Source: Amphiscolops sp. MND2022 | Lineage: Eukaryota | Assembly: GCA_964187785.1 (NCBI GenBank) | Contig: OZ076409.1 | Location: 56,856,001 to 56,920,000, forward strand | Length of the DNA: 64,000 nucleotides | Reading direction: 5' to 3' | In this document: positions 1,207 through 55,550 of the stretch, in pieces | Layout: each line of letters begins with the position of its first letter | Position numbering within the stretch: position 1 is the first letter of the stretch | Notes under the pieces: model-generated | The model's database searches: none | Told to the model about the DNA's origin: nothing | The model's input: only the letters and a program-made list of their open reading frames with translations | Program-made: the position numbers and the translations under genes

Positions 1207-1273
1207 ATTTCGTTAATTTGCTATCGTGTTACAACTTGTTACTTTGATTTTGCTTTTACTGGCTGTTTGGGAG

Positions 1274-6109: not shown

Positions 6110-8739
6110 GCTTGCCATTGCTGAATTCCTATTACTTTTTGTTCTCATTTTTGCTCATTATTTCGATTTCAAACGCCGTTCAATTGAACAAAAGTCTTTT
6201 CAAAGGTTGTTTTAATCAATCCTGAATCATGAAAAAAGTTTAAATGTTTTCATCTCGTGTTTTATGAGTGCTCCATACTCTCAGATTTTAATATTTTTCT
6301 ACATTAGTCTATGTTCCATTGTAGAATGATAGCAATGACAGCTAAAGTTTGTGATTTTTTAGTAGGCGCTTTATGATAAAAATGTGACTCTTATAATGGC
6401 TTTTCGTCGTGCCTTTTGTTTCAATCCGGTCGAAGATACCATAAACTTCAACTGTCTAGCTTTTGCTCATTTGCAAACTATGAAAATGATTTTTAACATG
6501 TATTCCAAATGACAGAAAACTTGTAATCAAAACGAAACATTGTAATAAATTATATATTCTTCACTAAGTTTATGAAAAACTGAAGTTTTCAGTTGGCAAC
6601 TTGATGATTGTAGTCTTGGCTTTGGTTTGAAACATGTGTTAACACTTATCAAAGAAAGTGAAACAATTGAAGATAACACGAAACGGGAAACATCTTTTCA
6701 TCCTCATTCAAATACGAACGCCTTCATTTTCAAGTTGAGAACTAGAAGCATTCTTTGATAGAATCTCGAGTGTGAAAAAACCAGTTTGGAATTGTTCAAA
6801 GAACTTGATTTCATACAACGCAGAGTAAAAAATATAAAAGCATAGTCAAAATTTGAGACCACCAAAAACAGCGGAGTTTAGGAAAGTTTTGAAAGTCACT
6901 GGAATCAAATTCGCGTTCTTTGAATATTTGTCCAAAAAGAAGTCGTTGGGATTTTTTGATTTTTTGTTCTTTAGAATTCAACATATCGAACTTTCTGATA
7001 TCTAACAAAAAATAAGCGGAACAGTTTTTTAAAGTTCGCGAAGCATCACTTGAGCGCATGAAAAAACGATAAAAATAGTATGACGCAAAAATTGGTGACT
7101 GAAACGAAGTGTCAATGACCTTGACAAACAATGGACTGGAGTCTCATTTGGCTTGCTTTAAGAAACCTTTTTAGCCGACCATTGAAGCATCTAAGCATTT
7201 AGGTTTTATTGTTACCGATTACAGCTGGAAGTAATTTCAATTTGCCTCAAGTCAAGTTCTTTGTTTCAATGCTTACAGAAATGTTACGATGAAAATAATG
7301 ATTAGTTTTTTTTTATTTACGCCTGATTTTTCAATCTGTTTTTTTTTGTAAAAAAAAGTGCCCGGCTATTAACTGGACTCGTTTTTTCCTCCAGACTAGT
7401 GTCCAAGACAAAAGTGTTTTTTCCTCCAAGACAAAGTGTCCCTCTTCGGATTTTTGCTCCGCTTCTTTGTGAGATTTGTTTTGATGCTTTGCAACATCGA
7501 GGAACCTAAAGAGCCCATTGACTTCTTTTTTCTATATATTCGAGGATGTAGAAAATATTTCGGGCTTTTCTACAAATCATTTCAAAATGAAATTGAAGAA
7601 CTTTGAAATTTTGGAGTCTTCAGTCGTTGTGAGCTTGTCAATTCCATGAAGGTTCGTTACCTTGGCTTCGGATAAATATGAATCGGAACTAAAACTAAAG
7701 AAATCAATATAGAATTGTTGGCAAAAATGTGCTTACTTTATTGCGTTTTTCAAAGCTGAGATCATCTAAAAAGTAGCGAAGTTTCAACTGTCTGAAATCT
7801 GCAACTTAAGTTTTTTAAATAAAGGATTTTTTCACAATGACAGACCTTTTCGATTTTTTAAACATGAGCTGATCATCAAAACAGTTTGTGATTACATCTT
7901 TTTTCACTCGTCTTAAAATTAACAACGGCTTAGCGTATATTTCACATCCGTTCTATTCAATGTTTAAAATAGAGTACATTTGATTACAACTTTGTGAGGA
8001 AAATTAACAGGAACCCAAGATCAAATTACTTCCGGATTGAATCCACATAAGTCCTCTCTGAAGCGTTTCTATCTTGGCTGCCTAATGGATTCGATCCCAC
8101 GTCATTGGACGGAGAGACGGCTGAACGAAAACAAAATGTGAGGGGATGAAAGTCACCATTAAAAGAATGCCCTAGCTAAGTGCTAATGAGATTAAGTAAT
8201 CTATTCATCTCCAGACAAGCCTAAGGGTTTTTCAAAACTAGATTTCACGGAAAAATGACAAAAAATTAATTTTTAGGAAAATGAACAGAGAATAAACAAG
8301 CCTTTTGCGATTGCTTTGTTTTTTTTGTCAATGTGTTTGTACTATACGAGACACGAAAAAAACACCGTGTTCATCTATTTGATTAATAATACCATGGGAT
8401 AACGGCCCGTATAATAATACCATGTATGCCATTCACCTTCATATGTACCTTGTGTCTTTTTATCACTTTCTAAAAGTTGAAACAATATTTCTATACACAT
8501 GAAACTAAGAAAACTAGATCTCCTTGACGAAATGCATTCGATCAGTAAGTACCTTCATCTAGAAACCTGATTACTTTTAATGGTCGACTTTTTGGGACCG
8601 TTTGCAAAAAACACCCATGCTGAGGTTCCATCAATACTAATTCATTGCTTCTACGGTGCGTCTATGGAACATTTATTTGAAAAGTTTTCTATTCACACTC
8701 AATAGATTTCCATTTTAAGAAACTTTTAAACTCTTGCAT

Positions 8740-9523
8740 TGTAACGGCAAGCTGTGGCACAGCAATATCAACCGATTTTGCAACTTTGACATGTTCAGAA
8801 ATTTTGTCAAGAATTCTAATCCGATGTGTGACGTGGCAGTGAGCATGTGATTGCTCTTTTCGCTGTTTCCACGAAATTGGCAGGTACTTCGACAACAAAG
8901 AGCAAGAACGAGCAAAAACACGGGCGCGCCGCCATGACAGAAGCCAGAGACGGCAAGAACATCTGAAAATAGACTCTTTTTGATGTGCTAACCCCGGTTT
9001 TTATCGATTTTCAGCATTATGCTACCCTATGTAGCAGAAACCGGTAAAATGAGTCTTTTTGCTTAATTGTCCTTGTTTGGTGCTTGGAGCCCCTGCGCCC
9101 CAGCTTTTTAGCTGTGTGGTTTGCCATTCCGATGTGTGCTTTGATGTATTTTTGCTGGATTTAGCCGTTTGAACTAGCGCTAGCGCTAGTTTGTGCAATA
9201 TTTGATCTTATTCCCCATTTTAGATATTATTCCGATATCAGATGGAAAATGGAATTTTACACTGTTTATTCTTGGCATTGTTTTTAAAGGCTGTCTAAAC
9301 GGTGGTCCCAGGCAAAGGGCCGAGACGGATGCCCGTTATTCTCAGCAGTTACAGACTGGGACCAGGCCAGAAAGCGTCCTACAAGACGGTTCCCCCACCT
9401 TGGGACTGGCTCCTTCGGAGGGAAAATGAGCTAGGGCTGCGGAGATCTAGGTCCCGGATCCTATTCGCTGTTCTAGTTCCTCCATTCTAAGTTGCGGTTC
9501 AAGCGCCAGCGCTTATTGTTACA
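8740..9523 (+). repeat. 5' LTR of element B (784 bp)
   Basis: About 99% direct repeat of 16293-17077; TGTAAC/GTTACA termini. Confidence 0.92.
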
Positions 9524-9538
9524 TAGAAACTCGTTTTT

Positions 9539-9556
9539 TGGCGACCACAGAGGGAT
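9539..9556 (+). promoter_or_regulatory. PBS, tRNA-Arg(TCG)-like, 15 nt downstream of the LTR
   Basis: TGGCGACCACAGAGGGAT resembles the complement of the tRNA-Arg(TCG) 3' end as recalled (TGGCGACCACGAAGGGA). Confidence 0.65.
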
Positions 9557-11429
9557 CGTCTTGGGAGGCTTTCCCTAGCGGTTTTTAAAACATCTGGCCC
9601 CCTGGTGTTTGACGCCAAGAACGATTGGACTCTGGAAGGAGACGTTTACCCAGAGTTTTTCCACACTTTTTAGATATTATAATGTTATATTTTGGTATTT
9701 TTCCATTCTTTCAGGGGATTTTTCCGAGTACCTTTGGTATGTTTTGATAACAGGTACTTGTTGACAGATAAAGTCTAAAATGGCAAGGTTCCCATCAGCG
9801 GGTCCTCTTTTTAGAAGCGTAGTGGACAGTAGCACGTCGCTACTGGTGTTAAACAGGTTTTTCTAGCTGTTTTCAGTGATTTGCGCTTATGTACGAGAGG
9901 TGAAATTGATGGTTGAACCACAATCCATCCGATCGATAGATGAGCCGAAACGAGTGTTCCCGACTCACCTCTCTCATTTCTCCTACAGACGTCATAGAAG
10001 GATCGGATTTGGTGGAAAGGTAGAACAAGTGCTAACGTTGCCGACGGTGCAAACCGTTTTTCTCTGGCTGGTCTGGATGTTGAGATAAAAGACGGCGAAG
10101 GTACCACCCCTCAATCCGGAAAAATCGACATTTTGGAGTGTGGTATGAAAAATTTTTTCGATTGCGTACTTTTTGATGAGGAATCGTTTGGTCAGGTTAG
10201 TTCTTCCGTATTGCAACTCAGTGTGTGCTTTTGCAGCTGTTTTCAGTGAGAAAAGTCCGATTTTAGGTGCAAAACTAGAAAAAACGTCGTTTTTGGCATT
10301 TTTGAGTGTTTTCCGTAATACGAGCGCGAGCGCTCAAAGTATTAGCCACAGAAGTTGCAAAAATGGTTGTAAAGCAGCTCAAAACCTCTAGAGTGCTGCT
10401 ACATAACGTAACGAGTACCAGAAAAGCCGTTGGAAACCTTTTTGAGACGTATTTTGCACGAAAAAACTCGGTTTTTAGCGAAATTGGCAAAAAACCACTA
10501 TGAAATGCCACTGGGAGAGTGCTAGATTGTGATGAAACTGCCTCTTCCGGGCTGCTGTTAGTTTGGGGCCTACTCCACAGTACCAAAAATAGGATTTAAG
10601 AAAGTTTGTAACGTCTTCTTAGTGAGAACAGGTCGAAAAACCTTGATTTTTGGCCAGTTTCAGGAGTGCCAGAGTGCATCATTAAAACCTCTGGGGCACT
10701 CAAGGTTTTCGTAACCTGGGAGCTTGCGCGCTCTCTTTTTCTGTTTTTGTAGTAAAAATAACGCGTGGTGGTGAAAACCGCGTGTAAAAATTCCCATTCA
10801 GTGCTGAGAAAAGTGGAAAAACGCACTCAATTTGACCAATTTTCCACAAAACCGGACTGTCTCTGAGCTAGGGTCGGGTCATCGATTCCTGAACCCTAGC
10901 CAAAAAGTGGTTACATTTTCGTAACCGCCACCAAAATAAACGCTAGTGCCGAAAATTTGGTGAGCGTATCGCTCACCAAAGTCGAGAAAAGCTCTCTGAC
11001 GTTTTGACTTCAGAGCAGCGCAAAAAGCCGAAAAAAATCCAAAACTGTAGGACTGTCAGTGCCTTATACCTAACGGGCACAACCCATTGAGGGTTTATCC
11101 CAGTGCAGCGGACAGTGGGCAACACGGTGGTCCCTTTTTGCCAGCCGTATCACTTCCTGAGGTGATCCTCTTAGTCAATTTGTGAGAAAAGTAGTCGAAA
11201 ACAGTGTTTTTCGCGTGCAACGTCCATACCGGGTCGAAACCTTAAATAAGCGCTCGCGCTTCAATTCGACCATATCAGTGGCATTATAGGTGCCCACTGG
11301 CATAGACTACCAAGTTTGGTGCCGATCTGTGTGATACTTGTTGAGAAAATAAGAAAAACGTGGCACCCAAAAAGGTGCGCAAAAAGGCAGTTTTTTCTTA
11401 ATTTTTCCGAGTAACCCGGGTACCTTAGT

Positions 11430-12960
11430 CGACGGGTGGGGCTATATTGCAGCCCACCATCGTAATTTCGTAATTTGTGCTGGTTTCTACGTTGCTGCAG
11501 AGACTTTGAGCTTGCTAGCTCATTCCAGTGGACCGCAATCTTGAAAAAGACGTGAAAAACAGTGCATTTCGGTACATAGTGGTACCGCACGTCTGTACCT
11601 AGGTGAAACGGTGTAGAAGGGGCGCAGCTCAAAACTGTGTTCACTTTCGTAAACTTACGTGTACCTAAGAGCTGCTGGTTAATTTTGGGCTTGATACGGC
11701 GCTTCCAGCGCACATACGAGCCTTCTGAGTGTTGTTGTGCGATTTTTGGAATTTCCAAAAATTCTTTGAAACTCTTCCTGTGGGTGACTGAAGACTTTTT
11801 GTCCCAGACCAGGTTGATTTTCTGGCCCAGTGTGCTTGTGGGAAAGCGCTGTGCAAATTTGAACAGCCTACGAGCCTTAGAACGTGTTTTGAAAAATCTT
11901 GGACGTTGAAAAACATCAATTTTCTTAAGTCCTCACCGAGACGAACAGAGAGATCCAAATCCTTGCTCGCCAAATTTAGGGTCAATTGGTACTGTATCTG
12001 TTGAGGAATTGACTAAAACAAATCGTACAAGAAGGTGCACAAGAAGGTGCGAATTCTACGAAGTCTTGTGGGATTGCCTGAACACCTTATTCAAAGAGTG
12101 GGGCCAAATTGCTGCCCACTATCGTGACCAGTGCAAGTTTATCGTATTGTTGCCGAAAAAACGAGCGTGAGCGCTCTTTGCAGTTCGCCAGAATCTGGGT
12201 TGACACGTGAAAAACAGTACATCTTGGAACACAGTGATACCGAACGTCTGTACTGTGTTGAAATTTCACCTAAACACCTCAGCACCAATCAGTTATTACT
12301 CCCTTGTACCTCAATCTACGTGGGGTTGTGTGGTTGATTTCGAAGCCGATCCTGCGTTTCTAGCGTTAGCGCTAGCCACTTGAGTTTGTTTCAAGTGAAT
12401 CTGAAAAACCCGAAAAATAAAAAAAAACCTCTGAACTGTGACTGCATCCCAATACCCCGATTCGGGATTCTCTTTTCAAGTCAGTGTATCAGTCCTGAAG
12501 TGCTGTATACGTTTCAGCTAGCTAGGACTCTTGGAATTACTTTCGTCCTGCTGGATCATAGCATTTTGTGACTTGAAGTTGTGATATCCCTTGTATTGTA
12601 ACGACTTGGACCATCTTTTGTTGGAACTGTCGGCGCACCTTATTGGAAAGTTGGGATAACTTTGCCCTGGACTATTCCTATTGGTGTCAGTTGGTGCACC
12701 GTTGCTGAAAAAAAAAGAGCTCGAGAGCTCAGCACTGTGGACGAGAGTCTTTGATTGCATGCGAAAAATCGTGTCAATCGAGACGCGGTGATACGGAACG
12801 TCCGTACCAGATCTAAATCTTGCCCAGTGGTCTGAATTCTTATTGTTTTTGTAGTGTAGCTGACTGTACGTGTGATCGCGTGATCAATTTTGAGCCCGAA
12901 ATCACGTTTCCAGCACTTGAACAAGCCACTTGAGTAATTTTCAGAAAAAAGTTGAAAAAT
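11430..12960. repeat. Three diverged internal repeats in element B (spacing about 655 and 554 bp)
   Basis: Shared core at 11551 (cgtgaaaaac...gtggtaccgcacgtctgtacc), 12206 (cgtgaaaaac...gtgataccgaacgtctgtact) and 12760 (tgcgaaaaat...gtgatacggaacgtccgtacc), with alignable flanks. Confidence 0.7.
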
Positions 12961-13974
12961 CAAAAAATCGTTGAAAAAGGCTCTAGCTTGGAGCTGGAGA
13001 CAATTATCAGCTACGGAAGGTAATTTCTCTGACTTGTGTGGCTGACAAATTGTGCTGTGTCATTTTGTACCCAGTACGATTGATAAAACTGAACTTGACT
13101 CTGTTCAGACACACGTTTTGAACAAAATTAAAATAAAAACAAAACACCAGAAAATCTATCATTGTAAATCTTCAATACTTCCGCTGTACAAGAGGCAGAT
13201 CCACAAAGCCTTCATTTTCCAACGGAAGGGGCCCAGTAGACCTTCCTGGGTGCAAACGAGGCAAATCCCACAGTTCAAAAAATTTGCCGGCCGGGGTCAT
13301 AAATTTTAGATTCTTCTGGGACTTCGAAATTTGATTCTGAATAGTTCAAGTCAGCACTTTTAAGTGCCTGCGACGCACTCTGGACTACATTTTTCCAAAC
13401 GAAAATCTCTAGGAGTTACCTTGAGCAGGGTTTTCGATATCCAAAAGAGACCCTGAGTGTTCCGACTTAGCCAAAATCACGAGATTTTGGGAGGAGCAAC
13501 TTCCTAGTGACGAAAAAGTTGACCGGATTGCCCGAGTGTGACACCTTTTTGAACACTCTGGTGCCTCATTTTGGTGTTATTCCGTTGTATCGAGTAGCAT
13601 CATCGCCGAATATTACGCCAAATTTGCAGAGAACTCTTTTGGGTAATTGCAAAATACACAAATCTCGTGAGGTTGAGAGGTCGACAAACCGCTCGACTGT
13701 CTGTTTGGTGCGCACTATCCAACTTGGCTGCAGCAATTTGCTCTAGAGCAAAATTTTCTAGTCCACTGAGCAGTGTGCAAAGTGTTGAGCAGTTTTCAGC
13801 ACGCTGTGATTGCTAGAAATTCTCTTGACTTTGACCCTGACACTGAACTTGGGTACACAGGTTGTTCTAGTGATGCAGTTCGGAACCTCTAAAGCTAAAA
13901 TTAAACATGGGAAAACCTCCGGCCGCCTCCGTTCCTTTTTAAAAGGTTGAAGGAGTGTCCGTGCAGCACAACCA

Positions 13975-15185
13975 ATGGATTTTCATGATGTTCAACCTCA
14001 AAATGAATCCCAAATGGTAGATGAACATGACCGATCGTCGAAGTTAGAGGATTTGAACTTGGAAGATTGGCCTTTGGAAGATAGTTTCAAACCTGTCTCC
14101 AATTCTCTAGACTCAATGCCATCCAACTCTCAGGATACCGAGCCGGAGAGGAGCATAAGGATTCCCAGTCCTAGTTCAGCATCGTCGTCTAAAAGATCTC
14201 TCTCCTTGAAGCCAGTATTCAGTTTTATCAGAAACAGGACCATTAATTAGAGGCCCTGGAGCAGCAGATGGATGAGATATCAGTCTTTTTGGCACAAAGC
14301 ACGCTTCGCAGGGAGAAATTGCTAGCGCGAGCGCTAGCACAAATGCAGTCGATAAATGCGGAAGTACAGATACACCTCAGAAATGCCGATATCAATATTT
14401 CAAACTGCGTCGAATCAGAACCATTGACACCGCCGACAAAAGACAGGGGGGTGGACCCAACACCTTTGGACACTACAACCGTAGGTTTTGCTGACACTTT
14501 GCCTGAATATCACGCTGGTGATAATGGGTTGCGCGAGCGCAACCTCTACTCAAGTGATACGAAGAGTGAACGAATATCAATTTCACCCTCTACTTCCTTA
14601 TCACAAGAATCTTTAAGCAACTCTCACTTCCCTGGAACAAAGTCCCTAATATCAACTACGAAGTTGCTACCGAATTCGCTGAAAGACTCCTTTGAGCCGC
14701 ATTCTGCTACACAGGAGCTACAGGATTTTATTCAGGTGGACCTGCCAGTCTTTATCAATTGGTTGCCTGGTGGTTCAGCTAAAACTCAACCAACTGGTCA
14801 TAGACGTGGTCGACCACCGTGCACAGACTGTGAGCACTCATGGCAAAAAGTTCTGTTGTCCCTTCATGATGGACGTCGCCGTGGCCGTCCACCACGCCAA
14901 GTTCTACCATGGTCACATCGACCGAAGGGACATAGGCGTGGCCGTCCTCCGAACAACTATTCCAGCCTTGAGACAGACCCAGTCTCCACAGTTTTCTTTA
15001 TTGGATTTCCTGATGCTTCATGCTTGTTGCATGTCCTGCTGCTATTGGATGGTGCTGTCTACCCAGTCCAAACAACACTCCATTTCTTTTCAAGGGGGGA
15101 TGAGGTGTCGTCAACGCTTAATTTTTCCCGCTGCATTTTTGTGTCAGGCATTCAATTTTGTCCATTTCTCACTATCCTCATGTGA
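13975..15185 (+). CDS. Ser-rich, coiled-coil protein with three AT-hook-like motifs, split by a 1-bp frameshift near 14247
   Basis: ORFs 13975-14250 and 14268-15185 join if one T is restored (aat tta gag gcc: RTINLEALEQQMDE); GHRRGRPP, GRRRGRPP and GHRRGRPP at 14796-14951. Confidence 0.55.
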
Positions 15186-16276
15186 AAGAAAGTGGCAAAC
15201 GATTAAGGCCCGGGGAGTCGACTAAGGCCCGTTGAGTTCAGTGGAGGATAACAGCACTTCCTTCAACCTCATTGTAAACTGACAACGCCCTGAGGATTTC
15301 ACTACCTTTGGTAAGGGACACTTGGCAGTGTGATGCCTTTTCAAGCAGCTATTTATCAATCTTGCCGCCAAAACCTTAGTTTTAGTCGTGTAAACGTCGT
15401 CATATTTTTGTTTCTCTGCCTCTTTGAGAAGTCTAACTCAAAATACTTCTATAAATGTAATAAGTAACCCAAAAATTCTACATGTATCTCTTCGCCCGAA
15501 AGGTGCGATTTTTGTTTTTTTTTCAAAGATTTCCAGTAGTTTCCTCCAAATTTCTGCGTGGTATCCAGAAAAAACGGGAGCTCGCGCGCTCCAGATATCA
15601 AAACTGCAGGATTTTGTCTCTTTTCGGCTACTTTACTCCAGTGCTTATGCTTATGAGCAGTTCGTAGTTTGCTTCTGATGGGTTCCTTGACAGATGCTAC
15701 TGAACTCTATACAGGTATGGAGCTTCACATCAGTGCGTGTTGCCCAAACCAAGCCGAACTGTAAAAAAAAGTATCGAAGAAACAGCCTGTTTTCCTTTTA
15801 AACAATGGTTTTTCCACTGAAAAAAATTTTTAGCGAAAAGAACTTTTAACTGTGCTGCAAACTGAAATTTTATTGCCGTGGAAAAGATGTTTTTCATGAG
15901 AACCACGTGCGTTTTGGAGCCTGAGCGCTCCGCAAAAGAAATTTTAGGCGTCCAAAGACAATGTGATAGCAAGATCCTACTCAAATTTGGTGCAGAAAAC
16001 TCGTGCTAAAAAAGTGGTGCTTTTTTGATTGATGTATGGAATCTTGGATTTGATCAATTTCAAGGTGCATTTTTGAGTACTGGTTCTCTAGCTCTCGAGC
16101 TAGCTCTGTTTAAACAGTTTCTGGACGATGCAGGTTCTCTGGATGGCAAGAAGCAAGACCTCAGGGTTGCCCAATCAGCAAAAGATGACAGTGCCACTGA
16201 ACCGTTGCAACATCACCAGTTTGATGTTGCGATGTATTCAATGCCAGCCTTTCAGCATGACAGGGACGTCATGCTT

Positions 16277-16292
16277 AAAGCCCGGGGAGTGA
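16277..16292 (+). promoter_or_regulatory. PPT-like tract of element B
   Basis: AAAGCCCGGGGAGTGA directly before the 3' LTR. Confidence 0.65.
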
Positions 16293-17077
16293 TGTAACGG
16301 CAAGCTGTGGTACAGCAATATCAACCGATTTTGCAACTTTGACATGTTCAGAAATTTTGTCAAAAATTCTAATCCGATGTGTGACGTGGCACTGAGCATG
16401 TGATTGCTCTTTTCGCTGTTTCCACGAAATTGGCAGGTACTTCGACAACAAAGAGCAAGAACGAGCAAAAACACGGGCGCGCCGCCATGACAGAAGCCAG
16501 AGACGGCAAGAACATCTGAAAATAGACTCTTTTTGATGTGCTAACCCCGGTTTTTATCGATTTTCAGCATTATGCTACCCTATGTAGCAGAAACCGGTAA
16601 AATGAGTCTTTTTGCTTAATTGTCCTTGTTTGGTGCTTGGAGCCCCTGCGCCCCAGCTTTTTAGCTGTGTGGTTTGCCATTCCGATGTGTGCTTTGATGT
16701 ATTTTTGCTGGATTTAGCCGTTTGAACTAGCGCTTGCGCTAGTTTGTGCAATATTTGATCTTATTCCCCATTTTAGATATTATTCCGATATAAGATGGAA
16801 AATGGAATTTTACACTGTTTATTCTTGGCATTGTTTTTAAAGGCTGTCTAAACGGTGGTCCCAGGCAAAGGGCCGGAGACGGATGCCCGTTATTCTCAGC
16901 AGTTACAGACTGGGACCAGGCCAGAAAGCGTCCTACAAGACGGTTCCCCCACCTTGGGACTGGCTCCTTCGGAGGGAAAATGAGCTAGGGCTGCGGAGAT
17001 CTAGGTCCCGGATCCTATTCGCTGTTCTAGTTCCTCCATTCTAAGTTGCGGTTCAAGCGCCAGCGCTTATCGTTACA
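16293..17077 (+). repeat. 3' LTR of element B (785 bp)
   Basis: Matches 8740-9523. Confidence 0.92.
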
Positions 17078-17408
17078 CATATTTTCATATATTTCTGCCT
17101 ACTCTTGAGAAGGTAATTAAGATACTGTCTGTTTTGGCTTCAGAGGAAAGTCATTTTTTTACAAATGGCGACCTTTTGTAATAATTTCATTAAGGGTCTA
17201 AGGAGAAGAATGATTTTTCAAAAAGAGCAGTAGTACTGTTTGAAACCACTTTGCCTTTGTTATTTTCCGACCCCACATTTTAAAAATGGGGGAGGAAAAT
17301 CATGACCTGTGACGCGTTTTTTTCCAAATTTTGCCAAATCTCCATAATCTCCACCTTTTGATTAATTGACTATTTTATATAGTTACTAGTAACTAAAATA
17401 GCATACAG

Positions 17409-24354: not shown

Positions 24355-26480
24355 TGTACACTTTCGATATAATTACGTACTTGATACGTTTTTCAAAAAA
24401 AAAATAAAATTTGACAACCGAGGGAAAAAATTACAACAGTTTATTTTGTCATTACGATAATTCAACATTTTTGAAACACCAAAATGCCGAATTCATCCTC
24501 TTGTTAAATAATGATTTGGTTCAACTTTCTTTTGGTTCCCAACCAAAGTTTCTCTGAAAGAACATTCTGCTCTGAGTCAGTTGAGTGGAGCCAATTTTCG
24601 CGTATTGCTTTTTTGTTGAGAATTGGTGGTCCAAAATGGCGCAAAATGCAAAACTTAATTATTCAACACGCATTTTTCAAAAACATTCAATTCAACATTT
24701 ACGGCAGTGGTCCCGATATAAAGAATAACAAGCTTAAGATTGAAATGAGTGCAGCCGACTCCCGAGATCTTGCTTTGATTTTGAGATCTTTTCAAATAGA
24801 CCTAAATTGAATGATTTTGATAGGTGGATTTATTCACGTGGACCCATTTAATGCATTTGTACATAATTTTTATGTTCATATAACAGTAGTTTTTGTCTGA
24901 GATTTACAATCATATTTATCGGCAATGGTCTCACACGAAAGTGAATCACCGTTGAAACGACTAGAGGAAAGCCAATCTGTGACATTTTGATTTGTTTTGA
25001 ATCTAACTAAGAAAATCAGTTGTATTCTAAGAAAGTCGAAAATCGTTTTTCTCCAAATTGAAAAATTGGTTTCAGTCTGTCAAACCGTGGGATGTGATTT
25101 TCCTCGTACTCCGATCGCTTCTGCTACCTGAGTTCTCGGGAGCCTTCATTATTTCGAATGAAGTTTTAAACTAATTCAGATTTTGGATTCCTGAGAAGCT
25201 TTTGACAAAGTTTTGGGAAAGAAGTTTTCGATAAACAACCTTTTGGACAACACTCAAACCCTATGCCTGGTTTGAACTGTCTAGAAAAACGTTCCCCTCT
25301 GTCGATTGCAAAAGCATTTCGCCTCTGGTTTTCAAATAGCTAACGCAAACATTTCTAAGACCAAAAATTGCCAAGAACAAACATTTCTAGAAAAATGATT
25401 TAAAAACTATGTTGCTCGACCCACTCTTTCTGGAAGGTCATCATTCCGAAAGACCTGTTTTTTCTAACATTCCTGGTCGGTCATGGTAAATACTTCGCAT
25501 CAAAATTTTGTATGACCTATTGGACGCCAATATGCAAATGAAGAGCAGTAAAACTAGAAACTTCTGTCTTTATTGATAAGTTTTATATTGACGCAGCGAA
25601 GTTTTTATGAAACAAATGGTATAAAATGGGAAGATAAAACTACATGGCAATTTTCTGGGGCGTGTCGCCTGCAAAAAACTTATCAGGCCCATTTTTTATA
25701 CCAGTTGTCTCCTCTGAAGTTGATACGCTTCGTATAATTCAGTCTCATTAGAATTTTGTAGACCTCTTTTGAGACAAAAAAGACTCGAAAATGAGTTATG
25801 GTGTAATAGAGTACGTCTCGAGAATTCGAAATTAGTCTAATTCTAATGATAAAAGCATTGAACAAACCTTCCACAAATGCAACAGTGACCGACACAAACT
25901 TTTTTCCATCCGGTGCAAAGTAAACGAGGCTTATGGAAAATGAAAAACTTGAAATGAAAATTTAGTCTAGTTCCAAACGTTTGATGGAAAAAGTAAACTT
26001 CAAGAAAATAATTTTGCCAAAGTTGTCTGGTGATGGAATTTCGAAATTCCATTGCCAGACATCTTTGAAAAGAGTCTGATATGGTAGCATATCATTCAAT
26101 TTTCAATTGCTTCAAACTGGAGCAAAAACTGGAGTTACTTTAATTTACATACATAATCTACTGTGTTGCTTCTGAGACGGTTAAAAGCGCCAGAGTCATA
26201 TGCGCGCCAATCAAAGGCAACTGGGGATTTGGTGATTCTTTGCTACCTACCCCAGCTTGAATTTCCTCACTTTGTTAATTAGTGATGAGTTTTTCATTTT
26301 AAATCAATACATCATAAATTGTTTCACTGAAAAATTCGAATATTTTGTTCAGAAATACCACAACTAGCTGGATAGGTGGTTTTAAATTTGAAAATACCAA
26401 ACTTGGCACCACCAGTGAGTGTTCATCAGATAGCTTTAATCAGGTTTGAATAGAATTGAGAAAAGTTAGCTCGAACTTAA

Positions 26481-27446
26481 TGTAACGTCATCCTCTAGTA
26501 CACCAGAATCAATCGATATTGAAATTTGAAAATGTTCAAAAATTTGATGAAAAATTCCAATTCGATGTGTGACGTGGCTCTAAGCATGTGATTGCTCTTT
26601 TAGCTGTTTCCACCGGGAGGGAAGAATAAAATCTAAAATAAGAAGATCTAAAATTGTGACATGCTCAACCTCGAAAAGGGGAATAACATCTAAACTTTTG
26701 CCAGTGGATCTTATTCCCGTCCTGAAATTTTAGATCTTATTCCCTTTAGATCGTGTTTCCTTTTTTGACTTTAGATCCTATTCTTTAGATCTTTTCCCCC
26801 CTTTAGTTGCCGCCATTTTCAATGCAAAACGAGGACGAGAGCAGACCGATCGAGGACAGAGAGAACGAGATAGCCTGAGAGCCCATAGAGACTGTGAAAA
26901 CCTCGAGAAAGACTCTTTTTTAGTGCAAACACTCGGTTTTTATTGATTTTCAGGAATATGCTACCCTACGTAGCGAGAAGCGGAGAAATGAATATTTTTG
27001 TTTACACATCCTTGTATGGTCCTTGGAGCCCCTGCGCCCCAGCTTGCAGCTGCGTGGTCTGCCATATTATTGCGTGCTTTGATGTATTTTAACTGTTATT
27101 AGCTGTATTTACTAGCCGGAAAACTAGTGTTTGCCGTGTTACACGTTATTCCCATGTCACCCTGACAAAGGAATTTTACACTGTTCATTTTTGGAACATT
27201 TTTAAGAACGATTCTTACGCGATGGTCCTGAGAAGAAAGCTAGATGCCCGTATTTTGTAGCAGTAAAAGACCGCACTAAGGTTGGAGAGCTTTTTCAGAA
27301 GACGGTTCCCCCTTCTCGGGACCGGCATCTTTGGGAGGGAAAATGGATAGATGCGTCGAAGCTGTCAGACCCGGACATCATACGTTTCCGTACTTATTCC
27401 GCCATCTTTTAATGTGATAAGCGACCTATCACTGCTTGCCGTTACA
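26481..27446 (+). mobile_element. Diverged solo LTR of the element B family, interrupted by a foldback-like insert at about 26614-26806
   Basis: TGTAACG...CGTTACA termini; collinear with LTR B (gatgtgtgacgtggc, ttggagcccctgcgccccagctt, aagacggttcccc); flanked by TAA on both sides. Confidence 0.85.
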
Positions 27447-27456
27447 TAATTTTACA

Positions 27457-38312: not shown

Positions 38313-38968
38313 ATTATATTCTTTTATCCGGAATATGGTTTTATTATAGATCAACTTGAAACTTCAACACTGACTATGTCTCGTGAATGACTTTTTTTAA
38401 TAGATGCGAATACCTGCCTACCTCCAGGAGAGATCTAAGAGATTTCCTAAAGAAATAACGTCAATAGTTTAGGTATGGCGTTTTAACAGAATACGGTATT
38501 TTATTAGTGTAATTTTCAAAAAGATAGAAGTTCGTTAGATACACTTCTTAGATACAAACAAGACGCCCGCTAAGCACCGGGAGTTTTTCCGCCTTCTTCA
38601 CCTTCACCAACTGAGCCATGGCTATTTTAGGAGTGGGGAATAGTATTTTAAGTATAAGATATAAAATTCAGTGATTTTAGATCTTAATCCCTTCAGATAT
38701 TATTCCCGTCCTGAAAGTTTAGACCTTATTCCCTTTAGATCTTATTACCGTTTTTACTTTAGATATCATTCCGCCCTCTAAGTTGTTTTAGTTACTTGAC
38801 TATTTACCTAACTAGTAACTGAAGTATTCAAGTAGCTATATAAAATAATCAAGAAGTTGAGTCGACTGAGGACCTGGAAGGAGATTTGGCAGAATTTCGA
38901 GAAAAAACGCAACACAGATCATGATTTTCCTCCCCTATTAAATGTGGTCGGAAAACAAAAATCATAAT

Positions 38969-40463
38969 TGTAAGAACTTTGACCCGTGGTCTCTCTTAGA
39001 TCTCCCACAGATCGTGAATCTTTCTTTGCAATCTTTGTTTTAGGCCCAGATGCGTTTTCCCTATTTTCCTGGCTACTAGGGGACGAACTGGCCTCGGTGT
39101 CCCTGTGCCTCGTAGAGGACATTGAGTTAGCAATGTTTTGAATTTCTGGAATGACTCTTTCAGCTATAGCTGTTGTAATAGCTCTATTTATTTGACTATG
39201 CATCATTGACATCATAGAGTCCATTTCTTGAGATAATCCGAGGTTAAATTCATTTGAGAAAGTTTCAAAGAACTGTCTGACTTCATTTTGTCTCAGTAAG
39301 TCATTTTCATGCGAGTAATCTCTATATTCATTTTCTAGGTACGCGTTTGTATCAACGTCCCCGTGGGTCGACGACTGATCTATTGCTTCAGCTAATTCCC
39401 TTTTTATGGGATTATTATTGCTATTTCCCACCATCACGTCTAAGTTTTCAAAGTCGGACATCATGTCCATTTCTCTAGATTTCCTAGCTTTCGCTTTCTG
39501 ACGTCTAGTAGAAGGCATAAGAGATTATTGCAAGAGGTAAGAATTTAAATTAAGTTCTCAAGCTTGCAAACAGAGTTTATTTGAACGGTTTTAACAAACT
39601 GGTTCTAACGGTATCAAACAGTTGTTCCCCGGGGCTACGTGTCCCGGCTATATATACATGAATTTACATGACATTCAGTATTTCAACAGTCATGAGCTAA
39701 AAATAGCCTTAAGGGCTTTCTAAATATAGACTCAGCTATAAATAGCAACAATGACATTATCGTGACGTCACTCAGTTCAAAGGACTCCCCTGTTGGATGT
39801 TATGGCGGGAAGCCCGTGAGTCCGCAAATGCAATAAACAGCATACATGTATGAAATAAAACAGATTACATGCGTTTCAACATTTAACTGCTTTTCATGGC
39901 ATTGTAAGTAATAGCACTCTGTCTTGCATCATTCATGAGTCCTTTTGGGACTAATTATGTATATTGTAAGTTATTAGAGCATCATCAATTACGTAAGCAA
40001 TAGCACTTACTGGTTAGCACCTTTAATTTAATTGTGGACTCAGTGTCCGAGTGACACGAGCGGACTAGCACTTTATCGACCGACGGCATATGGCCGTCTA
40101 GTCCTTTGATTAAATAACTCAGTACAGCAACAAATGAAAGTATTACTGCACTCTGATTGGATAACGAGTTAATTGGACTGGTAGACCAAGGCGACAGGCA
40201 AGAAATCATTCGAACGCGTTTCCTTTACCTGTACGCCTTGGTGTCCAATTAACTTACGTATTAACACCAGTATATTAACTTTACATGTGATTATATAATA
40301 CCAAACATATTGTGATATAAAATATGAGGTTTGCATGACTTCTTAAGATAATTTTAAGAGTTTTGTCTGTATGTTTATTTTAGAGGAAGTGTGTAGGGCT
40401 GCACTTTCTTATAATTGTGGCAAATTGAATATACATTCCCATCACAGGCGGACGCCTGGGACA
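38969..40463 (-). repeat. 3' LTR of element C (1495 bp)
   Basis: Matches 53881-55375; TG...CA termini; contains a second copy of the gag 5' part (ORF 38919-39518). Confidence 0.95.
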
Positions 40464-41214
40464 CTCCCCCTGGAATCAGCATAAAACAGCCCACTCTCAA
40501 TCTTTCCAGGAGGGCCAGTCTTCTTGCGTTGAACTGCTCGGCTGATTCTCCCCGTATGGCCGTTTTATGAAGGTAATCAATGACTGCCTCATCTTGAATT
40601 TGTTCCTCAGATTTCCCGCAAACGAGGCAATCTGTACAGCCTGAGATATAGGGGTTGTCACCGCCATTCGGTCCCCTGAAGTGGATGCCGTTGGAATGTT
40701 GCTGACTGTTACTAGTAGTGGCTTCTGCTGCTATCCTCCAGTCGCCTGACGGGTATTTATCCCTGGCTGGGGGTGACATGGGCGTGTCGACCATGGGAAT
40801 TAGTTGGCTGCATAAATTGATTGGGTGGTCATTTCTTAGCCGTGAGTCTCTCGCAATTGGTCCTCTGCCCATTCCCAAGTCAAAGTAGCCAGCATCGAAC
40901 ATAGGCCCAGGGATGTACGGTAGCCTGGGAGTTGCAGCACGAGCCACTTCTTGTTTACTGGCAGTAGAGGGAATTGGAATACTTTCTGAAGTTGACGGTA
41001 ATTCCATCTGCCTCTCCACACACTGAGCCAGGAGGGCCACCTCGTCGTCATCGGACAGGCTTTCCAAATCGTCAACAGATGCACTGCTAGCGCATTCCAT
41101 GTCGTCGTCTGAGGAAATGTAGATTACCCCGTCTCCGGGTGCTGCCCCTTGGAAGTCCTCAGGGTAATATTCCGGGGACTCAGAGTCAAAGTGGCTTGAC
41201 AAGAATTTATCCAT
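40375..41214 (-). CDS. Accessory sense ORF of element C (279 aa; acidic N-terminus, SIM-like VIYISSDDD, CxxCxxC), last 89 nt inside the 3' LTR
   Basis: Intact ATG-to-TAA ORF, GC-richer than the flanks; reads through the PPT (IPGGVSQA); no signal peptide or TM segment evident. Confidence 0.75.
   Translation of the reverse strand: MDKFLSSHFDSESPEYYPEDFQGAAPGDGVIYISSDDDMECASSASVDDLESLSDDDEVALLAQCVERQMELPSTSESIPIPSTASKQEVARAATPRLPYIPGPMFDAGYFDLGMGRGPIARDSRLRNDHPINLCSQLIPMVDTPMSPPARDKYPSGDWRIAAEATTSNSQQHSNGIHFRGPNGGDNPYISGCTDCLVCGKSEEQIQDEAVIDYLHKTAIRGESAEQFNARRLALLERLRVGCFMLIPGGVSQASACDGNVYSICHNYKKVQPYTLPLK
40464..40473 (-). promoter_or_regulatory. PPT of element C
   Basis: Minus strand CCAGGGGGAG abutting the TGTCCC LTR start. 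Confidence 0.8.
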
Positions 41215-42493
41215 GATCAATTTCTTGGCTATTTTGGAATTGACTGAAGGTTTTCAAGTTTTGACTTTCTGAAGAGTTGCTGATTTTTGAGAATGAAACT
41301 GAAACAATGGCGATTTTACTCTCCGTCGACTTGCGGGAGTTTTCGTTTGAGTTTCCCGGGGTTTTACTCTTCCTTGCTGACTAAATTTTCAATAACAAAA
41401 TTCCTTCCTTCTAGAACCTTTCAACTAGCCGCTCGGTCTTCTTTGAAAATGCCGACCGAGGCTTTGTTGACTTACATCACCTCTATCAACACTCCCATAT
41501 TAAACGCGTCGCTTCAAGTGTTTATTAACACTCATTTAGCACTTAAGAGTTTCAAGAGGGTGAAGATATGGCATACGGCTACGCCGTCCTTCAGCAGTTT
41601 TGATTAGCCAATAGGAATGCAGCATGATTCTTCCTGAATGAAAATGGCTCCTCAAGGTCGTAAATCCATATAAGGACTAATGTAAAATGACCTTGAAATT
41701 GAATGAAATCTTGGAAAATCATGAAATAATTTGTAAAAATGGTACAGTTTCGAAATAAATAAGTGATTGTAGATATCGCTGGCAGACTCCATCCACATGA
41801 TAATGTAAATTGTAAATAATTGCAAATTTGACACCAAATTGTATAGCCACGAACTCCAATTTTGACACTTTGTCACATTGCCGATTCACCTTTCAATTCT
41901 TTTACATTTGAATTCTCTCCAATTACTCTCTTTGTATTATCGCCAGTATTTAATCTTCTTTAGTCTTCTAGTCTTTGAGTCGTATTTATCCGTACTTTGT
42001 CTGAAGTTTCCATTTATATTTTCTCCTCGTTACACCTTCTGTGGATTTCTTGGGTCAACCTAGGACAATCGACACTGAGTCCCTTTTGGCAAACCCACCC
42101 ATATTCAGCATTCTCTCCCTCTTTCAAAGAAGAATCTGCTCCTCTCGCTCAGCAGCTGCTGTATAATCACTATTTCGGATCCAAAATACTTCTCCTCTGC
42201 AGATCGACCTCCAGGACTGACAATTCATCCGGCATCCGCAATCTGCACTCAGAACTTTTCTCCTTCAATTTAGTCCGCACAGGTCAGTAGCGTTTCAGGG
42301 GTTTTCATTTCTATCTTTGGTAATGAACTAATTTGAGGCTTGATCAGGGCTCTCATTTCATTCACGTACTTCCTGTCCCGTAACTTAAGCATTCACTTGA
42401 GTTCAAATATCTACTTCCGGAAGGTTTTTTAATGCGGCAATGGACTCTTTTTCAGGAAGTTCTCCGCTTGAATTTATCTTTTTCTATTTAGAC

Positions 42494-45400
42494 ATGTCGT
42501 CCGAAGAGCACAATGAAGTTGTTCCCGCTACCGCTACTGGGACTCTGGTAGAAGAAGAAGTTCCACAACAGTCCGAGGAAACAGTCGTCAACCAGACCGC
42601 CACCGCAATAAAGGACGCTGAGTCCAAGCAGCCTGATCCGCCGAAAGACAGCTCATCTAAGACTGGTCCAACCCCCAGCCCTTCCACCGATGAGAGTATC
42701 TCTGCGTACATTGAGCGTCAGTTGCAGACTCTAGGTTGTCAAGATACTGGACTGGACATCTCTTTCTTGCCTCCTACCACATCTGCCATCGTGGACAATG
42801 TGCTAAAGCCAACCACTGCGAAAGCTTCGGAGTCGGAGCCGATCCCTCACGTCGCAACCGGGCCGGCAGACAAGGAGTCTCCCGAATTTGAGACTGGCCG
42901 AACAATTGACATCGTCAGTGAAGCTGAGTTTTCCGTCACCAAGGCGGATTATTTTCAAACAGACACCAGCGACGTTGAAGAGCTTCTCGATAGTTCTGGA
43001 GCTGAGACTGTCAAACAATCTCCATTCTTACTTACAATAGAGACACAAAGCGCCACCGGGTCCGAGGCCCGTAAGGAGACTGAACAATTGTCCTCAGCAG
43101 GGTTGCCAGACGTCTCTTCCCCAAAGCTTTTTAGTCCTACCAAGCCTCTATCTGCTTCAGCTCGCACTCTCATTAATCAACATTTCAGCGAGACCAATCC
43201 AAGTATCCTTCCAGTAGGACACGCAACAGTAGCCTTCAATCAAGGACAGGTACATTCCATTTTGCGCGCCGTCTCCACTGAGACCATTACCTCTTCTTTA
43301 CACCAAATGAAGAATATACTGGAAGAAGCGATTCGGGTGGGGTCCGTTCCCAAGGCACCTCACAAGGACCCGGTAAACAGCGGATCAAATGTTTCCGCAA
43401 ACAGGCTGACAGCCCTGGACCAGATGGGCAAGATAGCGACATCGGGACTGAGGGGTACACCAGTGGAGCCCTTAGTTCAGAGGATGAGTTTGTCATCAAC
43501 TCACAAAGGACTGGTAAGGAGCTTAACATCATTCATCCCCCAAGTCCTCCTGGCCAGGCTTCGTCCCTGGCGCCTTGGCCGACACCCATGCACCAAGTCC
43601 CCAGTCCAGGTTTCTGCTCAACTGATTATGAGCCGTTGGCCACATTGAGCACTGACCAAGCCTCCGCTTCTAGTCCACCCCGCAAACGTCGCCGTCTTCC
43701 AGGACGCACTGGTAAGATAATGAAGGAGGCTTATTTCAAAGGATCCAATCGACCCGAACATTCGTCACTGGCCCACTCGACCCGGAGCACAACAAGCATA
43801 AATTCTATTGTCAAATATGCAAGACGAATGTTTCCATTTTCACAAAAGGTGCCCGGGAGATTGTCCGTCATTTCCAGTGTGAATCCCATTTCCGCAAGGA
43901 CCAGCGCTGGAGATATGAACATCTGAAGAAGAAGGATAAGGTGACTGGCCGAATCGTCTATGAGGTCAGGGGGAAGAAGGGCCAACTGCTAACACCTCTG
44001 GAACTTGAAAGAGAGAAACCCCTCTTTATGCAGGCTCCTTTAGTAGAAACTGGATGCAGCTACCCATTTTACGAGGACCATATGGCAGGCCTGGGATCCA
44101 TAGCTGGGCAGGAAGAGATCAGACTGTGCGTCCAAATCTCCATGGTTGCACTCTTTGCTCCTCGCTGTGAGGATTTATACACCCTTGAGTTGCTGTGGTC
44201 ACAGATTGGCACTGTAACCAATCTTCAGAGCCTGTTCTCTCCATACGATTGGGGTTCCTCCACATTGACAGTAAGTATCGTTAGTTCCTAGCCTCAGGGT
44301 TCTTCCGTACTAGCATAGCTTAGGTATATTTTCATCCTTGTTGATTTGTTTCAGACAATTTTCCATCACATCTTTCTCTGTGGAATTGCGGACATCGCGT
44401 ATCATGTCAGTGTCACGGGCCAATACTCTTTGGAGTTTGAGATGCGAGGCACCTACAGCTTTGTCTCGATTCGTTTCTGGAAGGGCGAATTCCTCAACGT
44501 CTTCTGTTTACTGCGTTACCGGACTGCTTCAGAGCCTGCTGCCGGTTTCTTGTTGGCACTTTCCCGTCTCCTGTCCGTGTTGTCAACACAGCCCCAAATC
44601 GTGAGTGTGTCTGGATGTCCCGCTGAGCTAATCCCGCTTCTTGAGCGTTCTTGCTTCTTCCAAAAAGGATTTGAGTACCCCTTTCGGTTTGATGCACTTT
44701 CTTTGCCAGACATGATGCACGAACGATGGGGGAAGCGTGTTTGGAACCATCAGCTTTTTTTCACAGCTGAAGTTTCTGGTTGCCTTCTTGGACGGCTGCA
44801 GTGGACAGCCCTGGGCCGCCCTAATGCCTGAATTCGTCAAGGTAAGGGTATTGTCTGTTCGACTGTAGGTCCAAGTTTAGACTGCCTCTAATGCACATAT
44901 TATCTGTAGGCTATGTCTACCCATCGTGTGGAGGTCGCTGCTGTGCCAACCATATGTTCGGAGCTGATTGCGAACTGGAAGTCTGTGCACCAACACTTGA
45001 CAAAAATTGCGCCTCCACAAGTTAATCAGGGGGTCAAGAGCAAGCCCCAAAGTCTCGAGTGGGAAATCATATCTGATGATCTCTTCACCATCAAACTAGA
45101 ATTCTTCGCACGAATTGTTCGTGATTGTTAGTATTTTGATCTTTTCTTTCTGTTCTGAGGACACAATGTCTCAGTTTTATTTGCCATTGAATAAAGTTCA
45201 TACAAGGTGTAGCAGATTGACATATTTGGTCCAATGACGTCGTTAGGACCAGGTGGGACAATAATATATTTTGTTTTCCAGACACCAAGAGCTTTGAGAG
45301 TCAGTTTGCACAACGAAGGGATAGCGGTTTCTACACTTTCCGCGAATTTCATACCTTCATCCGAAAACTGGCTGCCCGGGCTCTTCTCCCCAAACACGTA

Positions 45401-48400
45401 CCTGAGATGCTGGACTGGAAGTCGCTATGTGACTTACAAGGACAGGACTGGCGACAGCTGTCAAATCGCGATTTCTTGAGTCGGTTGAAACTCAAAGAGA
45501 ATCTGGATGCTGCATGCCTCGTTCGTGTCAAGAAGGTCTACAGTGAGAAACAGCCGTCCCCCGAAGGAATAGAAGCAGCGGTTGAGGCCACACGGGACGA
45601 TTTCGCCACCAAGGCTCGAGGTTACCTCGTGCATCTTTTGAAAGTCTTCCTTGCTGTCCTCAGCAGGGTTGCCAGACGTCTCTTCCCCAAAGCTTTTTAG
45701 TCCTACCAAGCCTCTATCTGCTTCAGCTCGCACTCTCATTAATCAACATTTCAGCGAGACCAATCCAAGTATCCTTCCAGTAGGACACGCAACAGTAGCC
45801 TTCAATCAAGGACAGGTACATTCCATTTTGCGCGCCGTCTCCACTGAGACCATTACCTCTTCTTTACACCAAATGAAGAATATACTGGAAGAAGCGATTC
45901 GGGTGGGGGTCCGTTCCCAAGGCACCTCACAAGGACCCGGTAAACAGCGGATCAAATGTTTCCGCATACAGGCTGACAGCCCTGGACCAGATTGGCAAGA
46001 TAGCGACATCGGGACTGAGGGGTACACCAGTGGAGCCCTTAGTTCAGAGGATGAGTTTGTCATCAACTCACAAAGGACTGGTAAGGAGCTTAACATCATT
46101 CATCCCCCAAGTCCTCCTGGCCAGGCTTCGTCCCTGGCGCCTTGGCCGACACCCATGCACCAAGTCCCCAGTCCAGGTTTCTGCTCAACTGATTATGAGC
46201 CGTTGGCCACATTGAGCACTGACCAAGCCTCCGCTTCTAGTCCACCCCGCAAACGTCGCCGTCTTCCAGGACGCACTGGTAAGATAACGAAGGAGGCTTA
46301 TTTCAAAGGAATCCAATGGACCCGAACATTCGTCACTGGCCCACTCGACCCGGAGCACAACAAGCATAAATTCTATTGTCAAATATGCAATACGAATGTT
46401 TCCATTTTCACAAAAGGTGCCCGGGAGATTGTCCCTCATTTCCAGTGTGAATCCCATTTCCGCAAGGACCAGCGCTGGAGATATGAACATCTGAAGAAGA
46501 AGGATAAGGTGACTGGCCGAATCGTCTATGAGGTCAGGGGGAAGAAGGGCCAACTGCTAACACCTCTGGAACTTGAAAGAGAGAAACCCCTCTTTATGCA
46601 GGCTCCTTTAGTAGAAACTGGATGCAGCTACCCATTTTACGAGGACCATATGGCAGGCCTGGGATCCATAGCTGGGCAGGAAGAGATCAGACTGTGCGTC
46701 CAAATCTCCATGGTTGCACTCTTTGCTCCTCGCTGTGAGGATTTATACACCCTTGAGTTGCTGTGGTCACAGATTGGCACTGTAACCAATCATCAGAGCC
46801 TGTTCTCTCCATACGATTGGGGTTCCTCCACATTGACAGTAAGTATCGTTAGTTCCTAGCCTCAGGGTTCTTCCGTACTAGCATAGCTTAGGTATATTTT
46901 CATCCTTGTTGATTTGTTTCAGACAATTTTCCATCACATCTTTCTCTGTGGAATTGCGGACATCGCGTATCATGTCAGTGTCACGGGCCAATACTCTTTG
47001 GAGTTTGAGATGCGAGGCACCTACAGCTTTGTCTCGATTCGTTTCTGGAAGGGCGAATTCCTCAATGTCGTCTGTTTACTGCGTTACCGGACTGCTTCAG
47101 AGCCTGCTGCCGGTTTCTTGTTGGCACTTTCCCGTCTCCTGTCCGTGTTGTCAACACAGCCCCAAATCGTGAGTGTGTCTGGATGTCCCGCTGAGCTAAT
47201 CCCGCTTCTTGAGCGTTCTTGCTTCTTCCAAAAAGGATTTGAGTACCCCTTTCGGTTTGATGCACTTTCTTTGCCAGACATGATGCACGAACGATGGGGA
47301 AGCGTGTTTGGAACCATCAGCTTTTTTTCACAGCTGAAGTTTCTGGTTGCCTTCTTGGACGGCTGCAGTGGACAGCCCTGGGCCGCCCTAATGCCTGAAT
47401 TCGTCAAGGTAAGGGTATTGTCTGTTCGACTGTAGGTCCAAGTTTAGACTGCCTCTAATGCACATATTATCTGTAGGCTATGTCTACCCATCGTGTGGAG
47501 ATCGCTGCTGTGCCAACCATATGTTCGGAGCTGATTGCGAACTGGAAGTCTGTGCACCAACACTTGACAAAGATTGCGCCTCCACAAGTTAATCAGGGGG
47601 TCAAGAGCAAGCCCCAAAGTCTCGAGTGGGAAATCATATCTGATGATCTCTTCACCATCAAACTGGAATTCTTCGCACGAATTGTTCGTGATTGTTAGTA
47701 TTTTGATCTTTTCATTCTGTTCTCAGGACACAATGTCTCAGTTTTATTTGCCACTGAATAAAGTTCATACAAGGTGTAGCAGATTGACTTATTTGGTCCA
47801 ATGATGTCGTTAGGACCAGGTGGGACAATAATATATTTTGTTTTCCAGACACCAAGAGCTTTGAGAGTCAGTTTGCACAACGAAGGGATAGCGGTTTCTA
47901 CACTTTCCGCAAATTTCATACCTTCATCCGAAAACTGGCTGCCCGGGCTCTTCTCCCCAAACACGTGCCTGAGATGCTGGACTGGAAGTCGCTATGTGAC
48001 TTACAAGGACAGGACTGGCAACAGCTGTCAAATCGCGATTTCTTGATTCGGTTGAAACTCAAAGAGAATCTGGATGCTGCATGCCTCGCTCGTGTCAAGA
48101 AGGTCTACAGTGAGAAACAGCCGTCCCCCGAAGGAATAGAAGCAGCGGTTGAGGCCACACGGGACGATTTCGCCACCAAGGCTCGAGGTTACCTCGTGCA
48201 TCTTTTGAAAGTCTTCCTTGCAGACATCAGCCTCAATGCTGGTATCGTAAGAGGCTTGGTCAGTTTTGATCCAGTAGCCCTCCTGAGTCTGCCGCTTGAA
48301 CAGGCCACATATTGTTTCTCCGCTTTATATCGATCCTTCAGTTTGCGAGGATGGTTGGAGAATTCCCCCGAGGCCGATGCCCGAGACGAGTACATTGATT

Positions 48401-49104: not shown

Positions 49105-49228
49105 GTCTTCTTTACTGTATATAATTATTTCAAGTAGAAAAACTAGTCGGAAATGTCCCAAGTAAAAATAAATGTCCTGATGGACTGGTAGTCAAAGTAA
49201 AGAAGGGACTATTAATTCAAGTTTCTGG

Positions 49229-55375: not shown

Positions 55376-55550
55376 ATAATGTAGTAATAAGATTTTATTG
55401 TCTTTCTTAATACTTTGAAAATCTTTTTTTTTCATTTCACTTACCAAGAGGTTTGAGTAAAACATGAAAAATAATCTGAGTAGAACAAATAAAATGTGCG
55501 ATGATTGACTCTGAATTTAGGAGATTCTAATCGCAGCTAAGTATAAAATG

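Follow-up and report, generated by a model that had tools for sequence, protein, structure and literature searches.

A non-autonomous LTR element of Amphiscolops with apparent 3-bp target-site duplications and a candidate Ty3/Gypsy-type helper

The 64,000-nucleotide stretch of Amphiscolops sp. MND2022 analysed here (GCA_964187785.1, contig OZ076409.1, positions 56,856,001 to 56,920,000, forward strand; hereafter the window) lies in a host genome that looks AT-rich and dense in long terminal repeat (LTR) elements. It contains an 8.3-kb LTR element, B, at 8740-17077 and a solo LTR of a sister family, each flanked by a 3-bp direct repeat (Table 1). These two repeats are probably true target-site duplications (TSDs), and a 3-bp duplication is quite likely to be the rule of B's LTR family.

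Table 1. Features of element B, the sister-family solo LTR and the control element in the window
Feature	Position	Strand	Basis
Left TSD copy, CAT	8737..8739	+	Junction sequence
5' LTR of B, 784 nt, TGTAAC..GTTACA	8740..9523	+	LTR alignment
Spacer of 15 nt from LTR to primer site, T-run at its end	9524..9538	+	Sequence
Primer-binding-site-like 18-mer	9539..9556	+	Complement with tRNA 3'-end geometry
Leader of ~4.2 kb, no Pfam or Rfam family	9557..13781	+	Pfam and Rfam scans
Family open reading frame, broken by a frame change at ~14160-14199	13873..15185	+	Protein relatives
Polypurine-tract-like stretch abutting the 3' LTR	16277..16292	+	Sequence
3' LTR of B, 785 nt	16293..17077	+	LTR alignment
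Right TSD copy, CAT	17078..17080	+	Junction sequence
Sister-family solo LTR (26481-27446) with TAA flanks	26478..27449	+	Sequence comparison, junctions
Control: unrelated Gypsy-type element C, 5-bp duplication ATAAT, primer-binding site adjoining the LTR	38964..55380	-	Junctions, Pfam

The left junction of B reads CTTGCAT/TGTAAC at 8739/8740 and the right junction GTTACA/CATATT at 17077/17078. On both sides, identity between the two LTRs breaks off precisely at TG and CA. The termini TGTAAC..GTTACA, which form 6-7-bp terminal inverted repeats, are found in all three LTR copies (B 5', B 3' and solo). Over 785 columns the LTR pair differs by 6 substitutions and 1 indel (99.1% identity), and the Kimura two-parameter (K2P) distance of 0.0077 bears out an earlier, sequence-only reading of B as young. 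The solo LTR (966 nt) is bounded by CTTAA/TGTAAC at 26480/26481 and GTTACA/TAATTT at 27446/27447, leaving TAA on both sides. It is 80-82% identical to the LTR of B across the first 133 nt and 69% across 487 nt. The sequence-only reading had counted it within B's LTR family; its TAA/TAA flanks hold, but it belongs to a sister subfamily and is not a copy of B's own LTR. At ~26700-26800 it carries an additional ~200 nt, part of which is a GATCTTATTCCC-type host repeat that recurs at 17412-17539 and 38674-38764.

The boundaries of B and the solo LTR were scanned over 49 shifts (±3 nt at each end) for repeats of k = 2-8. At the TG..CA boundaries both insertions match at k = 3 only, the 4-, 5- and 6-mers having 2-5 mismatches, and the unshifted k = 3 is the sole combination of boundary and length that fits both, besides two trivial k = 2 sub-matches. 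Junctions and scan together confirm the earlier claim of 3-bp flanks that do not extend to 4 bp. A random 3-mer match in the local host DNA has a probability of 0.022-0.023 per element, and of ~5e-4 for both. Element C (38969-55375, minus strand) retains a perfect 5-bp duplication, which indicates that the assembly preserves such footprints.

Internally, B has the cis signals of an LTR element and none of its enzymes. A Pfam scan of the 6.8-kb interior in six frames, stop codons being read as X, found no gag or pol family and a single unrelated match below cut-off. B lacks capsid, reverse transcriptase (RT) and integrase and keeps its LTRs, its primer-binding site (PBS) and its polypurine tract (PPT), so that its designation as non-autonomous stands. 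The PBS-like 18-mer does begin 15 nt past the LTR, the offset noted earlier. Its complement shows CCA, a discriminator and 7+5 stem bases, arranged as at the 3' end of a tRNA; the tRNA may be tRNA-Arg, and no tRNA gene lies in the window. Shuffled sequences fold as well as the region around the PBS (z -0.36), which thus gives no sign of a structure that would loop out the spacer. The Rfam scan returned one sub-threshold match only. A purine run followed by TGTC at 15092-15110 looks like the remnant of a PPT-LTR junction, and the actual PPT's GCCCGGGGAG motif recurs at 15208-15217.

The open reading frame (ORF) of B survives in two pieces, 14247-15185 and, in a different frame, 13873-14160. Its C-terminal half bears three RGRP motifs, presumably AT-hook-like, and the ORF gave no usable match in the Atlas and no Pfam family. 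Among 6895 candidates, 420 proteins are related to it at E<=1e-3; the best 120 of these are 73-100% identical, all come from ENA assemblies except the window's own, and 102 of the 120 carry three GRP motifs. B is thus a member of a large, high-copy non-autonomous family.

A candidate helper emerges from longer forms of this ORF. A search for such forms gave 13 proteins, 12 of which fuse the N-terminal half of B's ORF (to 14711), at 75-96% identity to window positions 13782-14711, to a capsid segment, so that this half is common to B and to the N-terminal extension of Gag-Pol proteins. The protease family PF13975 is present in 3 of the 11 longer relatives that were scanned (P0122, P0124 and P0133); P0133 continues past the protease into RT (PF00078), and P0284 extends to RT and RNase H pieces. 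Mosaics also occur in the other direction, as 27 of the 120 listed B-type ORFs start with the pre-capsid segment of P0124. Such two-way exchange may reflect co-packaging of the two RNAs and template switching. The RT of P0133 is 87-94% identical to those of full, high-copy Pol proteins (for example P0142, P0153 and P0182) whose clusters have 208-693 members, and it groups with them at an SH-like approximate likelihood ratio test (SH-aLRT) value of 95 in a quick tree of 88 unnamed rows whose search was unfinished and from which rows with <170 aligned residues were left out. P0153, P0161 and P0182 have long post-integrase tails with RGRP motifs, again presumably AT-hook-like, and a conserved C-x2-C-x4-C-x-C cluster; the three-RGRP end of B's ORF shows no alignable similarity to these tails.

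Judged by its proteins, the helper Gag-Pol family is Ty3/Gypsy-like. Pfam matches on P0320 and P0336 and an architecture scan give the order Gag-protease-RT-RNase H-integrase. The integrase (PF17921 and PF00665) combines an HHCC zinc domain, a D-35-E spacing found in 6/6 proteins checked, and a GPY/F module, whose W-x-GP[FYH] motif is present in 29 of 32 proteins of sufficient length and aligns with that of Ty3. Among the 354 proteins compared, all 71 zinc-knuckle matches, from the helper lineage and its sisters, read CX2CX4HX4C. The 120 RT hits comprise 64 with YVDD, 49 with YIDD (the motif of P0133), 2 single variants and 5 not resolved by the pattern. Of 46 solved matches to P0153, the top one is Ty3 Gag-Pol (7q5b, E 6e-99), with collinearity across RT, RNase H, integrase and the GPY/F module. 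The polyproteins are very long, up to 3178 residues. An atypical integrase had been proposed from the sequence alone; the HHCC, D-35-E and GPY/F features are all canonical, and only the inferred stagger is unusual. An Atlas look-up of the integrase returned generic rve/H2C2 clusters only. A D-N-A-P/T motif after the second catalytic aspartate was considered as the cause of a short stagger and dropped, since the same motif occurs in a retrovirus with 6-bp duplications.

Short duplications are otherwise known from Troyka, which a 2025 survey describes as the group with 3-bp duplications, CG..CG ends and LTRs of 100-400 bp, every other LTR retrotransposon being assigned 4-6 bp and the combination of 3 bp and CG ends serving as a classifier (Kojima 2025, PMC12440569). 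The earlier statement that Troyka is the 3-bp exception was therefore correct, while the proposal that B is Troyka-like does not hold. B and Troyka resemble each other in LTR architecture and the presence of non-autonomous members, the protease-RT-RNase H-integrase domain order is likewise common to Troyka and the helper lineage, and the B family has the 3-bp duplication in 2/2 insertions, a small sample. B and the solo LTR, however, end in TGTAAC..GTTACA, and their LTRs measure 784, 785 and 966 nt. The ends of Troyka LTRs are conserved, with CGCCA..TGGCG in 573 and 522 of 603, the zinc knuckle of the group is described as CX2CX8-10HX4C and the GPF/Y motif as lacking (PMC12440569), whereas the helper lineage has the short-spaced knuckle (B itself has none) and the W-x-GP[FYH] motif. 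Troyka, treated together with the Kuafuorterviruses, is further reported to have IADD, VADD or LADD in place of YXDD in the RT (Gong and Han 2024, PMC11673190), unlike the Y[IV]DD of the helper lineage. Membership of B in Troyka was accordingly rejected, the 3-bp duplication being the only one of the group's diagnostic characters that it shows. BEL/Pao was also set aside: Drosophila BEL is reported to make 5-bp duplications (PMC3276498), compared with 3 bp here, and the helper has the Ty3-type Pfam set of RT, RNase H and integrase together with GPY/F, a judgement made with no BEL reference aligned.

With the Ty3/Gypsy group (Metaviridae) B shares TG..CA ends, a tRNA primer site and a PPT, and the helper shares a Pol collinear with that of Ty3. 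The differences are the 3-bp duplication, compared with the usual 4-6 bp, which is a customary trait and not a basis of classification, the 15-nt spacer between LTR and PBS, the 4-kb leader and the length of the helper polyproteins. Reported duplications are 4 bp for Drosophila Gypsy elements (PMC3276498), 5 bp for Ty3 (bioRxiv 2021.07.27.453949) and, among plant LTR elements, 5 bp in 93.4%, 4 bp in 6.2% and 6 bp in 0.4% (PMC6317226); PMC9911081 and PMC12859917 contributed no TSD lengths. The open literature, searched mostly at the level of titles and with Repbase and subscription journals outside the search, showed no Gypsy family that combines TG..CA ends with a 3-bp rule; the Troyka supplements could hold relevant 3-bp cases. 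Large non-autonomous LTR elements are known as LARD-type derivatives (large retrotransposon derivatives). The TRIMs (terminal-repeat retrotransposons in miniature) Helenus and Ajax similarly have no enzymes, retain LTR, PBS and PPT and are mobilised in trans; they are described as <1 kb long, with 4-5-bp duplications and small-RNA-derived LTR promoters (PMC10886601), whereas B is 8.3 kb long, carries an ORF and has no tRNA or Rfam family. The IS3 family is a more remote parallel, with DDE enzymes related to LTR integrases, although its members are prokaryotic DNA transposons without LTR, RT or primer site. Most IS3 subgroups are reported to make 3-bp duplications, IS407 making 4 and IS2 making 5 (PMC10045372), and this variation suggests that the fold allows the duplication length to change.

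The explanation that we consider best, and hold with moderate confidence, is that B represents a non-autonomous family of high copy number and that a Gypsy-lineage integrase with a 3-bp stagger, arrived at independently of Troyka, moves it in trans. LTR integrases are described as joining CA-3' ends to staggered target phosphates, with gap repair producing the duplication, whose length is reported to follow active-site spacing and target bending (PMC10045372). The RNA of B would retain the LTRs, tRNA primer site, long leader and PPT as cis signals, and a Ty3/Gypsy-type Gag-Pol from the same genome would package, reverse-transcribe and integrate it. The DDE integrase of this helper would join the CA-3' ends to phosphates 3 bp apart rather than 4-6, and repair of the gaps would leave a 3-bp duplication. 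The solo LTR would then record a second event, independent of the first, by this integrase or one related to it. With the primer site placed 15 nt past the CA, reverse transcription would leave a 15-nt extension on the cDNA end; its removal would be needed, perhaps during 3' processing or, as a flap, when the gaps are repaired.

Several observations weigh against this explanation. The 3-bp sample consists of two insertions without an empty site; a search of the window for an empty homologue of either target found none crossing a junction. Drosophila families represented by a single site or by two have given off-pattern lengths (3 bp for Dm88, n=1; 2 bp for Tirant, n=2; PMC3276498). The helper is tied to B through proteins only, with no helper DNA and its LTRs unseen, and none of the proteins carrying the N-terminal half of B's ORF reaches an integrase. 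Close relatives by RT, P0138 among them, differ at the N-terminus, the Pol tails do not match the 3' region of B, and the RT tree contains no named reference sequences. The sequence of the helper integrase has nothing unusual that would hint at the cause of a short stagger. The distant relative L005, which shares the plan of B, offers no second LTR copy to confirm its LTR end.

Three other explanations were weighed. It is unlikely that B belongs to a usual 4-bp Gypsy family, or to one with a mixture of 3 and 4 bp, in which both sites are short variants or have lost a junction base. Animal Gypsy families mostly make 4-bp duplications, and off-mode TSDs, 1.8% in Drosophila, mostly differ by ±1 (PMC3276498); one Troyka insertion with 4 bp rather than 3 implies that the stagger can slip (PMC12440569), and the solo LTR by itself fits a 4-bp TAAT if its first T is host DNA. 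Two independent off-mode events at ~2% each, however, have a joint probability of at most 3e-4, the shifted boundary is at odds with B and disrupts the 7-bp terminal inverted repeat, and the youth of B leaves little time for junction mutation. Of similarly low probability is a real 3-bp cut made by another helper, either a lineage with B's LTRs or a Troyka-type integrase, the Gag-Pol fusions being side products of recombination. The unseen helper LTRs and the divergent N-terminus of P0138 are in keeping with this, as is the standing of Troyka as the sole published 3-bp group found; yet the strongly conserved Troyka ends differ from those of B, the two-way mosaics link B-type RNA to Gypsy-type gag, and no Troyka-like protein appeared among the protein hits. 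A chance match, in recombinant or misassembled elements that have lost their true duplications, appears very improbable. Unmatched flanks do occur: among three distant metagenome elements for which both flanks are present, two (L058 and L081) show no duplication and the third, L062, has 5 bp; but the joint chance of ~5e-4 would apply even with both TSDs lost, C is intact in the same window, and the LTRs of B are nearly identical.

If a 3-bp Gypsy-lineage integrase does move B, LTR elements would have acquired 3-bp duplications a second time and independently, with the stagger uncoupled from CG ends, and a TG..CA Gypsy-type family would break the 4-6-bp rule stated in the Troyka survey (PMC12440569). 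The helper and Ty3, near in sequence and differing in duplication (3 versus 5 bp), would provide a natural pair for identifying the determinants of intasome cut spacing. Structure-based LTR finders that by default ask for a duplication of >=4 bp would under-call a family of hundreds of copies. B-type elements are probably a new variety of Gypsy-dependent LTR element. We suggest more tentatively, and regard as possible rather than established, that they and their helper belong to a deep, undescribed branch of giant Gypsy-type elements combining a 3-bp cut with TG..CA ends. Its traits would be long leaders, a spacer-offset PBS and polyproteins of 2000-3000 residues, with relatives of 48-60% RT identity in other metagenomes.

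One such relative, L005 (RT 52% identical), has CA, then a 7-nt spacer with a T-run at its end and a PBS-like motif resembling that of B; a leader of ~3.9 kb precedes gag. Together with L004 (386-17672), L006, L008 and L009 it is a giant of >18 kb, with a Gag of ~900-990 residues, a Pol of ~2700 residues whose C-terminus has a weak, below-cut-off Macro-domain match (PF01661, E 1e-3), and a third ORF, 1500-1900 residues long, with a weak IBR match. The metagenome comparison used 80 of 558 confirmed loci; none of the 80 shows DNA similarity to the window, and the closest loci have no LTR pair. The LTR motif common to B and the solo LTR had no match in viral_contigs or metagenome_contigs, and its sole match in genome_contigs (L001, a bacterial bin) was discarded as a 22-nt chance match. 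Pol searches of viral_contigs gave no relative, and no LTR-junction peptide was found in the 354 proteins compared.

Elsewhere in the window, element C is a 16.4-kb Gypsy-type element with LTRs of 1495 nt (99.3% identical), a gag ORF that begins within the LTR and a 2.57-kb tandem duplication at 43089-48231 (98.9%); it also has long ORFs on the opposite strand, none of which matches a Pfam family above cut-off. It was rejected as the helper of B: its RT is 28-30% identical to that of the partner lineage, and its LTRs, adjacent PBS and 5-bp duplication differ. The right flank of B (17257-17613) and the left flank of C (38555-38961) are inverted copies, 72% identical, of one host repeat, which suggests that both elements inserted in or beside one repeat family. 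Element A (1-6110) has two LTRs, 99.3% identical and at least 1188 nt long, the left one being cut by the window edge, and a gag-like ORF (PF03732, below cut-off) with no pol seen; it probably represents another non-autonomous family. On the minus strand at 62538-63692 lies a further gag-like ORF that resembles, by eye, that of C.

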